DNA of 64,000 nt from a bacterium (GTDB lineage Bacteria > Patescibacteriota > Minisyncoccia > Phycocordibacterales > SBAW01). Positions 57,271 through 60,126 of the stretch are shown here, one piece after another. The notes below the pieces were generated by a model that saw only the letters and a list, made by a program, of their open reading frames with translations, was not told the origin of the DNA and searched no databases. The position numbers and the translations under genes are program-made. The first letter of the stretch is position 1; every line of letters starts with the position of its first letter. Location: assembly GCA_037139975.1 (NCBI GenBank), contig JBAXFJ010000002.1, positions 24,373 through 88,372 of the forward strand, given 5' to 3'.

Positions 57271-60126
57271 ATGGACCAATACGACCATAAAAAAATAGAG
57301 AAGAAGTGGCAAAAGCATTGGGAGGAGACAAACGCTTTTCGTGCTGATGACGTCTCGAGCAAAGAGAAAAACTATTTACTTATCGAGTTCCCGTACCCAT
57401 CAGGCGATGGGCTCCATGTGGGGCACGTGCGCTCGTGGACCGCACTCGACGTGGTGGCGCGTAAGCATCGCGCCGAGGGTAAAAATGTCTTGTATCCAAT
57501 CGGGTGGGACGCATTTGGCCTCCCCGCAGAAAACTTTGCGCTCAAAACGGGCATCCACCCAAAGATTCTCACCAAGAAAAACACCGATAACTTCAAGCGA
57601 CAGATCAAATCAATTGGCCTCTCGTTTGACTGGTCGCGCGAGATAGACACCACCGACCCGGCCTATTACAAATGGACGCAGTGGATTTTTCTCCAGCTGT
57701 TTAAAAAAGGCTTGGCATACAAGGCAAAAGCGGTTATCAACTGGTGCCCCAAAGACAAAGTGGGTCTTGCCAACGAAGAGGTGGTTGATGGCGAATGCGA
57801 ACGTTGTGGTACGCCGGTTGAAAAGCGCGAAAAAGAGCAATGGATGCTCGCGATTACCAAATATGCACAGCGGCTCTATGACGACCTCGAAACGGTCGAC
57901 TATATCGAGCGAGCAAAGGTGCAACAAAGAAACTGGATCGGCCCAAGCGAGGGCGCCGAGATAGATTTTGCTATTGCGGGGAGCGACAAAAAAATAAAAG
58001 TGTTTACCACGCGGCCAGACACACTCTTTGGGGCAACGTATATGGTGCTCGCCCCGGAGCATGCGCTGGTGGGGAAGGTTGTGGAGAAACTTGAAAATAA
58101 AGACGAGGTGCTCGGCTATGTTGCTGCCGCAAAAAATAGAACAGAGATCGAGCGGAGCGCAGAAGGAAAAGAAAAGACAGGTGTCGAGCTAAGGGGCATT
58201 AAAGCAATTAACCCAGCAAACAAAGAAGAAATCCCTATTTTTGTCGCCGACTATGTACTCGGCGGCTACGGCACCGGCGCCATCATGGCCGTGCCCGCGC
58301 ATGATGACCGCGACTTTGCTTTTGCACAGAAGTATAATATTCCAATTAAGCATACTATCAACCCTGTTTATATTCGCGATGATGTTGCCAGTCGGACAGA
58401 CTTCACCCCTAAGCACAAGATCGTTAGTGTTGTTGAAGATGGAAAAGGTAACATTTTAACGATTCAATGGGGTCCAGAGATGGGAGGAACTCTTTTCCTT
58501 GGTGGCACAATTGAAGAGGGTGAAACTCCTGGGCAGACAGCGCTTCGTGAGCTTGCAGAAGAGACCGGGTACACCGACGCTGAAATTATAGAAGTCGGGG
58601 ACGAGGTATTTGATTATAAATACTTCGCTTCTTCGAAAGGCGTGGCATATCAAGCGTTCACAAAGTTTGTACACGTCAAATTGCACAGTTTAACTCAACA
58701 AGAACAAAAGCTAGAGCAGAACGAGGTTGGAAAATTTAAAGTTGAGTGGGTATCAGCTCAACAAGTGCCCACGAAAGTGACTGAAGTGTTGCATGTCTAC
58801 GCGTTTAATAAATTTATTTTACACAAACCATATACAGGTTCAGGTACCTTAACCAACTCTGGGCATTTTAATGAAATGAACTCAGAGGAGGCAAAACAAA
58901 AAATAACTGAGTTTGTGGGTGGAAAGTGGGTCACGACGTTTAAATTGCGAGATTGGGTGTTTAGCCGTCAGCGCTACTGGGGCGAGCCTATCCCGATGAT
59001 TTTTTGTGAAGTTTGCGATAAAAAAGGAGCGGGGTGGCAGCCTGTGCCAGAAAATCAGCTGCCTGTTTTGCTTCCTGATGTCGAGCAGTATCGCCCAGGC
59101 GAAAACGGCGAGTCGCCCTTAGCGGGTATGCCCGAGTGGTATAACACCACATGTCCCGCCTGTAGCGGTCCCGCAAAACGTGAGACCGACGTGATGCCGC
59201 AATGGGCAGGCTCAAGTTGGTACTACTTGCGCTATTGTGATTCACAAAATGACCAGGTGTTTGCTGACCCACAAAAATTGAAGCACTGGACACCGGTCGA
59301 CTGGTACAACGGTGGTATGGAGCACACCACGCTCCACCTGCTCTATTCGCGTTTTTGGCATAAGTTCTTATTTGATATTGGCGTGGTGCCCAGCTCGGAG
59401 CCCTACAAAAAACGCACCTCACATGGGCTTATCTTGGCCGAGGATGGTTCGAAAATGTCCAAGTCGAAAGGCAACACCGTGAGCCCCGACGAATTAGTTG
59501 AAGCATTTGGGGCCGACTCTCTGCGTCTGTATGAAATGTTTATCGGTCCATTTGACCAACCCACCCCTTGGAATAGCGGCAGCGTTGTCGGGGTACGACG
59601 CTTTTTGGAGCGTGTGTGGAAGCTTGCACAAGAACCACTCGCAGATGAGCCCGCGAGTGAGGCGCTTGAAGTGACGTTGCATCACACGATAAAAAAGGTT
59701 GGCGAAGATGTTGAAACAATGAAATTTAACACCGCGGTTTCGCAACTTATGATCTGTCTCAATGCGATGGAGAAAGCAGGGAAATTACATGCAAGCCAGT
59801 GGAAGATATATTTGGGATTGCTAGCGCCCTTTGCCCCACACGTTGCCTCGGAATTATGGGAAAAACTTGGATTTGAAGGCAGTATCTCAAAAGAAAATTG
59901 GCCGCAGTATGACCTAGCCAAGCTTGTAGCAAAACACGTTTTGGTCGCAGTGCAGATAAACGGTAAATCGCGAAGCACCATACAGCTTGCCGCAGATGCA
60001 TCAGAGGCGGAGGCACTTGATACGGCCCGAAAAGACAGCGGCGCGGCAAAGTGGCTTGCGGGGGGCAGGGAAGCACGCGCGGTCTATGTGCCCGGCAAAA
60101 TTATTAACTTTGTTATAGAAAGATAG
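57271..60126 (+). CDS. leuS: leucyl-tRNA synthetase with an inserted Nudix-hydrolase domain
   Basis: HVGHVRSW (HIGH), KMSKSKGN (KMSKS), and an editing domain (TTRPDTLFGATYMVLAPEH...AVPAHDDRDFAFAQKY). An extra in-frame ~160 aa at ~58360-58845 contains a perfect Nudix box GTIEEGETPGQTALRELAEETGY. Confidence 0.85.
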   Translation: MDQYDHKKIEKKWQKHWEETNAFRADDVSSKEKNYLLIEFPYPSGDGLHVGHVRSWTALDVVARKHRAEGKNVLYPIGWDAFGLPAENFALKTGIHPKILTKKNTDNFKRQIKSIGLSFDWSREIDTTDPAYYKWTQWIFLQLFKKGLAYKAKAVINWCPKDKVGLANEEVVDGECERCGTPVEKREKEQWMLAITKYAQRLYDDLETVDYIERAKVQQRNWIGPSEGAEIDFAIAGSDKKIKVFTTRPDTLFGATYMVLAPEHALVGKVVEKLENKDEVLGYVAAAKNRTEIERSAEGKEKTGVELRGIKAINPANKEEIPIFVADYVLGGYGTGAIMAVPAHDDRDFAFAQKYNIPIKHTINPVYIRDDVASRTDFTPKHKIVSVVEDGKGNILTIQWGPEMGGTLFLGGTIEEGETPGQTALRELAEETGYTDAEIIEVGDEVFDYKYFASSKGVAYQAFTKFVHVKLHSLTQQEQKLEQNEVGKFKVEWVSAQQVPTKVTEVLHVYAFNKFILHKPYTGSGTLTNSGHFNEMNSEEAKQKITEFVGGKWVTTFKLRDWVFSRQRYWGEPIPMIFCEVCDKKGAGWQPVPENQLPVLLPDVEQYRPGENGESPLAGMPEWYNTTCPACSGPAKRETDVMPQWAGSSWYYLRYCDSQNDQVFADPQKLKHWTPVDWYNGGMEHTTLHLLYSRFWHKFLFDIGVVPSSEPYKKRTSHGLILAEDGSKMSKSKGNTVSPDELVEAFGADSLRLYEMFIGPFDQPTPWNSGSVVGVRRFLERVWKLAQEPLADEPASEALEVTLHHTIKKVGEDVETMKFNTAVSQLMICLNAMEKAGKLHASQWKIYLGLLAPFAPHVASELWEKLGFEGSISKENWPQYDLAKLVAKHVLVAVQINGKSRSTIQLAADASEAEALDTARKDSGAAKWLAGGREARAVYVPGKIINFVIER

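Follow-up and report, generated by a model that had tools for sequence, protein, structure and literature searches.

Aminoacyl-tRNA synthetases belong to the most conserved enzymes, and additions of catalytic domains to them in eukaryotes have repeatedly revealed new biology. Their connection with Nudix hydrolases runs through diadenosine tetraphosphate (Ap4A), which is made by class II LysRS and hydrolysed by a separate Nudix enzyme of the NUDT2 type. The present study concerns a bacterial leucyl-tRNA synthetase (LeuRS), encoded by the gene leuS in a 64,000-nucleotide stretch of contig JBAXFJ010000002.1 (assembly GCA_037139975.1, positions 24,373–88,372; this whole stretch is called the window below) from a member of the Patescibacteriota, which contains a Nudix hydrolase domain inside its CP1 editing domain. 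Whereas the LysRS/NUDT2 axis consists of two separate proteins, the Nudix domain of the window is fused to LeuRS, with Ap4A as a hypothetical substrate; the common logic is that a polyphosphate-bridged side product of a synthetase is a classical Nudix substrate.

A class I synthetase with an added small enzyme domain is likewise described by the NCBIfam model NF040702 (isoleucine--tRNA ligase, N-acetyltransferase domain-containing), so that the kind of protein, a synthetase with an accreted catalytic domain, is already known. Unusual here are the nature of the partner, its nesting in the editing domain instead of being appended, its presence in 0–3 copies, its exchange as a cassette between lineages and its relation to leuS, being fused to it or adjacent to it. 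NCBIfam contains an exception model for the GNAT-bearing IleRS and none for Nudix-LeuRS; the latter proteins are present in public databases with precomputed Pfam hits, and the nested Nudix explains why the NCBI pipeline gives them only the bare name 'class I tRNA ligase family protein'. Full-text literature searches yielded no publication that reports a Nudix domain within LeuRS or adjoining it; the suggestion of an earlier note on this DNA that the fusion was not previously known therefore stands as far as the publications searched are concerned, but the fusion is not rare in sequence databases.

Canonical bacterial LeuRS (T. thermophilus, PDB codes 1h3n and 2byt; E. coli, 4aq7) have in common with the window enzyme the HIGH and KMSKS signatures, the Zn module, the TTRPDT and GTG...AHD motifs, and the anticodon-binding and C-terminal domains; the window enzyme differs in possessing a Nudix domain of about 150 residues in place of a 10-residue CP1 loop and in lacking the leucine-specific domain. 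To free-standing Nudix proteins (2azw; RppH/NudH; T. thermophilus Ndx1 Ap6A hydrolase; ADP-ribose pyrophosphatases) the domain is 14–24% identical, and it differs from them in being nested in another enzyme and in the additional conserved residues K456, E485 and W493, numbered as in the GenBank protein MEI7719923.1 (here P0001).

The leuS gene and its nested Nudix domain

The nested segment is read in frame and occupies 58360–58845, as the earlier note had proposed; these coordinates correspond exactly to residues 368–529 of a single open reading frame (ORF) of 955 residues. The Nudix box GTIEEGETPGQTALRELAEETGY, which had been called a textbook one, matches the consensus GX5EX7REUXEEXGU at each position and is the sole Nudix box of the 64-kb window. 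The Pfam NUDIX family (PF00293) was recognised with 53.4 bits (E 3e-14) in the whole protein and with 57 bits in the excised segment, at a gathering cut-off of 21.1, which is well past chance. In an alignment with T. thermophilus LeuRS, Thermus residues 1–362 correspond to ORF residues 5–367 and Thermus residues 373–580 to ORF residues 521–728, so about 153 residues stand in place of the 10-residue Thermus loop. The gene is organised as follows:

57259–60126, + strand: leuS, bacterial-type LeuRS, 955 residues from the TTG codon (TIGR00396 and 1h3n matches)
57415–57426, + strand: HIGH signature (HVGH) of the synthetic active site; H49, G51 and H52 invariant in 73 homologues
57928–58359, + strand: N-terminal part of the CP1 editing domain, ORF residues 224–367 (Pfam PF13603 at residues 224–377, profile positions 1–150 of 185)
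58006–58023, + strand: T-rich motif TTRPDT in CP1, invariant in 73 Nudix-bearing LeuRS
58270–58314, + strand: CP1 motif GTGAIMAVPAHDDRD, invariant in the same 73 LeuRS
58360–58845, + strand: nested Nudix hydrolase domain, ORF residues 368–529 (NPVYIRDD...PYTGSG), at the predicted tip of a CP1 β-hairpin ('site B')
58504–58572, + strand: Nudix box GTIEEGETPGQTALRELAEETGY, predicted catalytic metal-binding helix, recognised from the sequence
58846–58947, + strand: C-terminal part of CP1 (GTLTNSGHFN...TTFKL), leading back to the catalytic body (PF13603 resumes at about 134–175; T. thermophilus alignment)
58948–58983, + strand: RDWVFSRQRYWG, second half of the catalytic domain, recognised from the sequence
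58948–60126, + strand: second catalytic half, anticodon-binding and C-terminal domains (Pfam Anticodon_1 at residues 806–916)
59452–59466, + strand: KMSKS, recognised from the sequence

The PF13603 profile stops at about position 150 of 185 and picks up after the insert, so the insert lies inside CP1; the earlier note was wrong in placing it behind CP1, ahead of the following segment. AlphaFold 2 modelling of the excised insert with 45 homologous inserts predicted the α/β/α Nudix fold with the expected order of strands and helices (predicted local distance difference test, pLDDT, 94.6; predicted template modelling score, pTM, 0.88), and a Foldseek search with this model found more than 500 Nudix structures at E ≤ 1e-3. 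The model of the full-length protein, made from 73 sequences, has a pLDDT of 90.0 and a pTM of 0.80, with a confidence of 83–96 across the insert; the junction strands (P0001 residues 363–368 and 525–527) are also confident, which places the Nudix, in the model, at the tip of the CP1 β-hairpin. The expectation of independent folding on the editing domain thus agrees with both models, where the insert appears as an autonomous domain. Taken together with the intact box, the domain is predicted to be self-contained and catalytically competent, grafted onto a surface β-hairpin of CP1. The published 'CP1 hairpin' of LeuRS (PMC4138327) was considered as the insert-bearing hairpin and rejected; it is the Zn-finger neck, and that source has nothing on site B.

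The enzyme bearing the insert gives every sign of being functional. The TIGR00396 (leuS_bact) model matches the ORF with 970.2 bits against a curated cut-off of 548.4, the match being split in two by the insert, and T. thermophilus LeuRS (1h3n) matches it with E 3e-231. The CP1 editing motif GTGAIMAVPAHD (GTG/AHD) is present, beginning at 58270, and the HIGH, KMSKS, TTRPDT and AHD motifs are invariant in the 73 Nudix-bearing LeuRS. Because the editing and synthetic motifs are invariant in homologues, the host is regarded as a complete LeuRS, and the window gene is predicted to encode a working enzyme with both sites intact. The leucine-specific domain is absent: Thermus residues 581–635 have no counterpart, and only AEDGS joins HGLIL to KMSKS (59430–59470, ORF residues about 725–736); the Mycoplasma mobile enzyme has a comparable tetrapeptide, GKDG (PMC3643597). 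The GenBank version of the protein (P0001, 951 residues) starts with the ATG at 57271, four codons after the TTG at 57259, and ORF numbering therefore equals P0001 numbering plus 4. The upstream DUF5671 gene ends at 57255, and either start leaves almost zero intergenic space.

A comparison of the inserts with the bodies of the enzymes indicated a much greater divergence of the former (mean pairwise identity 33% vs 65%), with the catalytic positions retained. In the 73 full-length Nudix-bearing LeuRS, residues G412, E427, E431 and K456 are invariant, and G413, E430, G433, L471, E485 and W493 are at least 90% conserved; in a set of 90 site-B inserts, G412 is found in 90 of the 90, E427 in 88, E430 in 85, E431 in 90 and G433 in 88. 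N459 and R460 occur in most family members and are missing from the window copy. The dN of the insert against its nearest relatives is 0.14–0.29; synonymous sites are saturated (pS 0.78–0.88), so that dN alone is informative and dN/dS is not. The conservation of catalytic positions despite 33% mean identity suggests that the Nudix domain is maintained as an enzyme. It is very improbable that the fold has been co-opted, as in NrtR-type regulators, as a ligand sensor or as a structural or tRNA-binding appendage, since E427, E430, E431, K456 and E485 would hardly have stayed invariant or nearly so among inserts this divergent, and the window copy has a perfect box.

Distribution and separate history of the insert

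The alignment with other LeuRS proposed in the earlier note was carried out and bore out the insertion. Among the 120 best LeuRS homologues, whose source labels are Patescibacteria, Parcubacteria or Paceibacterota, site B contains 160–180 residues in 90, of which 88 have a Nudix domain and two a PF10706-like nucleotidyltransferase, and 2–66 residues in the other 30. A Nudix domain at site B was also found in 17 of the 80 best GTDB species representatives. The Nudix-in-LeuRS arrangement recurs in hundreds of tiny-genome bacteria; at the same time the segment is, as had been supposed, not a usual subdomain of LeuRS, being missing in the Thermus and E. coli enzymes and in many close relatives.

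Some of the carriers are LeuRS of the Bacillota type, and relatives 80–83% identical to them have no insert. The body of L015 shares 83% identity with that of insert-free L048 and 68% with LeuRS of the cultured Peptoniphilus obesi; between L002, with a Nudix at site B, and insert-free L067 the identity is 80%. The domain is also present in metagenome-assembled genomes of rabbit-gut 'Bacilli' (L004–L010) and in the pair L008 (Bacillota bacterium) and L011 (Clostridia bacterium).

These distributions bear on the suspicion that an assembly chimera, a frameshift or an intein-like selfish element lies at 58.3–58.9 kb. The GC content at third codon positions (GC3) of the insert, 0.39, is below that of the rest of the gene (0.55), but this corresponds only to the 12.6th percentile of same-size coding windows, and for the same reason the low value is only a weak sign of recent transfer. 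The insert is in frame in a single ORF, and a chimera is excluded by its presence in 88 of the 120 nearest homologues, which come from independent assemblies, and in the 17 GTDB loci. An intein was considered and rejected: the Pfam scan found no Hint or intein family, the junctions (...KHTI|NPVY... and ...YTGSGT|LTNS...) have no such signature, and a search for direct and inverted repeats at the insert borders revealed nothing meaningful. An artefact (the earlier note had named a sequencing or assembly chimera as one finding that would undo its claim) can be considered already refuted by the comparative sequence data, its probability being practically nil.

The insert and the body of the enzyme seem to have different histories, as the identities of inserts and bodies are barely correlated (r = 0.26). 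The inserts of P0006, P0013 and P0053 share 80%, 66% and 65% identity with the window insert, their bodies being only 58–61% identical to that of the window enzyme; for P0002, P0003 and P0010, which have the closest bodies (72%), the insert identity is 27–40%. In a sliding-window comparison the switch in identity coincides with the insert borders, and against P0006 the insert has a dN of 0.139 and the body a dN of 0.346. Among the bodies nearest to that of the window enzyme, some belong to insert-bearing and others to insert-free proteins. In the 'Bacilli' group the inserts belong to the window's type and share 44–47% identity with those of Patescibacteria, the bodies being 50–56% identical. 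This decoupling, together with the mixed nearest bodies, suggests cassette-like behaviour of the Nudix, with gains, losses and exchanges among leuS genes, also across phyla; on the evidence of these comparisons, its exchange between LeuRS lineages is considered established. No DNA signature of an exchange mechanism, in the form of repeats or otherwise, was found at the insert.

The Nudix family inside and beside leuS

A profile of 45 inserts was searched against 1.84 billion representative proteins and retrieved 188 representatives at E ≤ 1e-30 and 757 at E ≤ 1e-10. Among the best 150 family representatives, 117 are embedded in LeuRS and none in other synthetases. At least 13 LeuRS representatives contain 2–3 Nudix copies: three in P0121 (boxes at residues 270, 433 and 753), P0122 and P0132, and two in, for example, P0123–P0126, P0128–P0131, P0152 and P0252. 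In P0102 a second copy lies at another CP1 position, site A; its 60% identity to the site-B inserts found in other proteins indicates a renewed insertion of this family elsewhere in CP1. The 379-residue P0127 is a tandem Nudix array with no LeuRS sequence.

About 25 of the best 150 representatives are truly free-standing proteins of 154–207 residues, to which the JGI label 'MutT (NUDIX family)', a generic one, is attached. Genomic context was examined for eight free-standing members:

P0146: followed at a distance of 1 nt by a 951-residue LeuRS::Nudix
P0195: followed at a distance of 2 nt by an insert-free LeuRS
P0154: followed at a distance of 10 nt by the N-terminus of a LeuRS
P0147: an insert-free LeuRS lies 2.4 kb downstream
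P0204: preceded at a distance of 4 nt by fpg/mutM (L088 3016–4513; L088/L089)
P0171, P0223 and P0239: context uninformative

The P0146 locus is syntenic with the window (flavodoxin-like, YchF, DUF5671, Nudix, LeuRS, sigma70_r4/HARE-HTH), and the same-strand cluster of P0147 includes MetRS, TatD, an HD_3/YfbR nucleotidase and a second, MutT-like Nudix. Members of the family are overwhelmingly either part of LeuRS or encoded immediately 5' of leuS, and this occurrence as a fusion in some genomes and as a neighbour in others is a classic signature of functional partnership.

Several ORFs consist of a CP1 fragment and a Nudix domain with no synthetase body (L094 412–1251; L095 112–951, i.e., P0225; P0222, P0231, P0237 and P0242). 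They combine a degenerate C-terminal CP1 stretch (..IPAHxxEDxExAKKxNLxIKQV..) with the Nudix domain and a YxGEGxxINS tail, and lie in very AT-rich contigs (27% GC); in P0242 the unit is fused to an unrelated N-terminal region. Their interpretation as gene-calling artefacts of genetic code 25 was rejected, since translation with table 25 joins none of them to LeuRS. They could be remnants, or vehicles for cassette exchange.

Other enzyme domains are nested in related LeuRS at three sites. Site A, which is the first hairpin of CP1 and lies between GAEIxF and KVFTTRPDT, contains Ham1/ITPase, an α/β 'Ser_hydrolase' or Nudix; site B contains Nudix, Nudix plus HAD_2 (L064) or a nucleotidyltransferase; and a third site, in the catalytic domain (L060), contains a nucleotidyltransferase. 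Such proteins (P0013, P0026, P0057, P0059, P0062, P0091, P0101, P0107, P0110, L029, L060 and L064) reach about 1190 residues, and the nested Ham1/ITPase, Ser_hydrolase, PF10706-like nucleotidyltransferase and HAD_2 domains sometimes occur together with the Nudix. The 226-residue site-A insert of P0013 gave zero Pfam matches; a HAD_2 gene abuts the start of leuS of P0013, with one base common to both (L093 1145–1831). At L083 7476–7913, the gene for a 145-residue MutT-like Nudix, not of the same family, stops 4 nt short of an insert-free leuS. In some LeuRS, FADAHD replaces the otherwise invariant AVPAHD of the editing site (L085 980–3217; P0110); one such lineage has a free-standing upstream Nudix and the other a site-A hydrolase.

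Candidate functions and the wider meaning of the locus

We consider it somewhat probable that the domain is an active pyrophosphohydrolase serving as a dedicated partner of LeuRS and acting on a nucleotide-type compound. The module would hydrolyse such a compound, having a pyrophosphate bond, near the synthetase; the likeliest substrates would be dinucleoside polyphosphates (ApnA), or adenine or purine nucleotides that are damaged or non-canonical and, if left intact, would find their way into the activation site. Very small genomes would gain co-expression at about 1:1 from fusion or from translational coupling in a nudix-leuS operon. The Ham1, HAD and HD-nucleotidase partners fit this theme of nucleotide sanitation, and so do the MutT-like Nudix and Fpg genes located beside leuS or beside family members.

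Several observations weigh against a dedicated partnership. Of the eight free-standing members whose context was examined, four lie away from leuS, and the host hairpin is dispensable, being deleted entirely in P0059, P0063 and others (a 36-residue gap at site B), which fits a merely permissive site. Nested domains as unrelated as the α/β-hydrolase and the nucleotidyltransferase weaken any substrate-specific story. The top structural neighbour, 2azw from E. faecalis, is itself uncharacterised, and neither family models nor fold searches led to an assignment among the Ap4A-hydrolase, MutT, RppH and ADP-ribose pyrophosphatase subfamilies. The RppH models (PRK00714 equivalogs) gave at best 27.9 bits for the window insert against cut-offs of 116–118, and the MutT models TIGR00586 and PRK10776 gave 25–27 bits, in the box region only, against 97.9 and 148. 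As for specific substrates, LeuRS is only a modest producer of Ap4A.

Part of this evidence fits a rather unlikely alternative, in which the insert is a passenger: an ordinary house-cleaning Nudix, mechanistically unrelated to leucylation, that sits in a permissive surface hairpin encoded by an essential gene with constitutive expression. The domain would persist because only a precise deletion is viable, and fusion would mean free co-expression in a minimal genome. The wholly deletable hairpin, the unrelated domains (Ham1, α/β-hydrolase, PF10706-like nucleotidyltransferase and HAD) at three sites, the variation of Nudix copy number from 0 to 3, the insert-bearing and insert-free enzymes among the closest body relatives, and the half of the free-standing members lying away from leuS are all expected of a passenger. 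It accounts poorly for the LeuRS specificity of the family, which has no other carrier proteins among the best representatives, for the recurrence of free-standing members immediately 5' of leuS, for the re-insertion of the family at another LeuRS site and for the occupation of the same site in LeuRS of two phyla.

If the domain is a dedicated enzymatic partner, the identity of its substrate is a separate question. ApnA compounds are side products of the reaction of aminoacyl-adenylate with ATP, and Ap4A clean-up, suggested in the earlier note, is plausible; ApnA specifically as the substrate is nevertheless a tentative proposal, with a rather low chance of being correct. The aminoacyl-adenylate itself would be an unusual Nudix substrate because it has no pyrophosphate bond, which is what established Nudix chemistry, the metal-dependent cleavage of nucleoside diphosphates joined to a further moiety X, acts on. 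A Tyr about 16–18 residues past the Nudix box is a marker of the Ap4A/ApnA-hydrolase subfamily. ADP-ribose pyrophosphatases, represented by the NudF/YffH models, carry a Pro about 16 residues after the box; in contrast to this Pro, the window insert has K at +16, and the corresponding model, TIGR00052, was matched by 3 of the 45 inserts, below the cut-off.

A quite unlikely alternative is an RNA-directed module, removing 5' pyrophosphate or nucleotide caps as RppH does, or 3'-pyrophosphate from a toxin-hit CCA end, with LeuRS acting as a tRNA-end repair enzyme. RppH models are the commonest NCBIfam match of the inserts (39 of 45), and in the window the match extends beyond the Nudix box (insert residues 49–144 to positions 39–135 of 155), but none of these matches comes close to the family cut-offs. 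The top structural neighbours include RppH and the decapping effector AvrM14-A and otherwise form a mix of decapping, ADP-sugar and ApnA hydrolases, and ADP-ribose and ApnA hydrolases score equally in the fold search. The location of the insert is suggestive, as CP1 docks the acceptor end of tRNA-Leu, and the co-occurring nested HAD phosphatase, nucleotidyltransferase and esterase-type hydrolase resemble an RNA-end healing toolkit; Ham1/ITPase is ill-suited to such a role, and the toxin-repair idea is an extrapolation from CapRel-type toxins.

A wider and similarly improbable conjecture is that CP1 of LeuRS in tiny-genome bacteria might be a platform on which exchangeable cassettes (Nudix, Ham1, HAD, esterase and nucleotidyltransferase) dock and act on tRNA-Leu ends or synthetase-bound nucleotides, e.g., in the repair of toxin-modified, pyrophosphorylated CCA ends or in decapping. 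LeuRS would then be an RNA/nucleotide repair machine, and the Nudix would spread between phyla via recombination in the flanking conserved CP1, with the ORFs composed of a CP1 fragment and a Nudix domain as possible vehicles.

The neighbours of leuS in the window (YchF, DUF5671, sigma70_r4/HARE-HTH, S41 peptidase and flavodoxin-like genes) give no functional clue. Elsewhere in the window, the region 20355–29239 has a low GC content (0.31–0.43 vs 0.49 for the window), contains a type I restriction-modification system and is probably an integrated mobile island:

20355–23468, − strand: HsdR
23480–24091, − strand: ORF of unknown function in the restriction-modification island
24095–25360, − strand: HsdS
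25363–26910, − strand: HsdM
27690–29198, + strand: large serine recombinase, abutting the tRNA gene
29169–29239, − strand: tRNA gene

A second tRNA match, at 4303–4374, scores only 40.5 bits, vs 66 bits for the other.

The finding adds a second predicted hydrolytic active site to the proofreading domain of LeuRS, one that appears to be kept by selection while being repeatedly gained, lost and swapped. It also indicates that CP1 tolerates grafts of whole domains at defined sites, which may be useful for engineering. If the proposed partnership of the Nudix domain with LeuRS is true, the fusion would mean that leucylation in Patescibacteria and some Bacillota is coupled to a step of quality control, directed at nucleotides or RNA, that has so far gone unrecognised.

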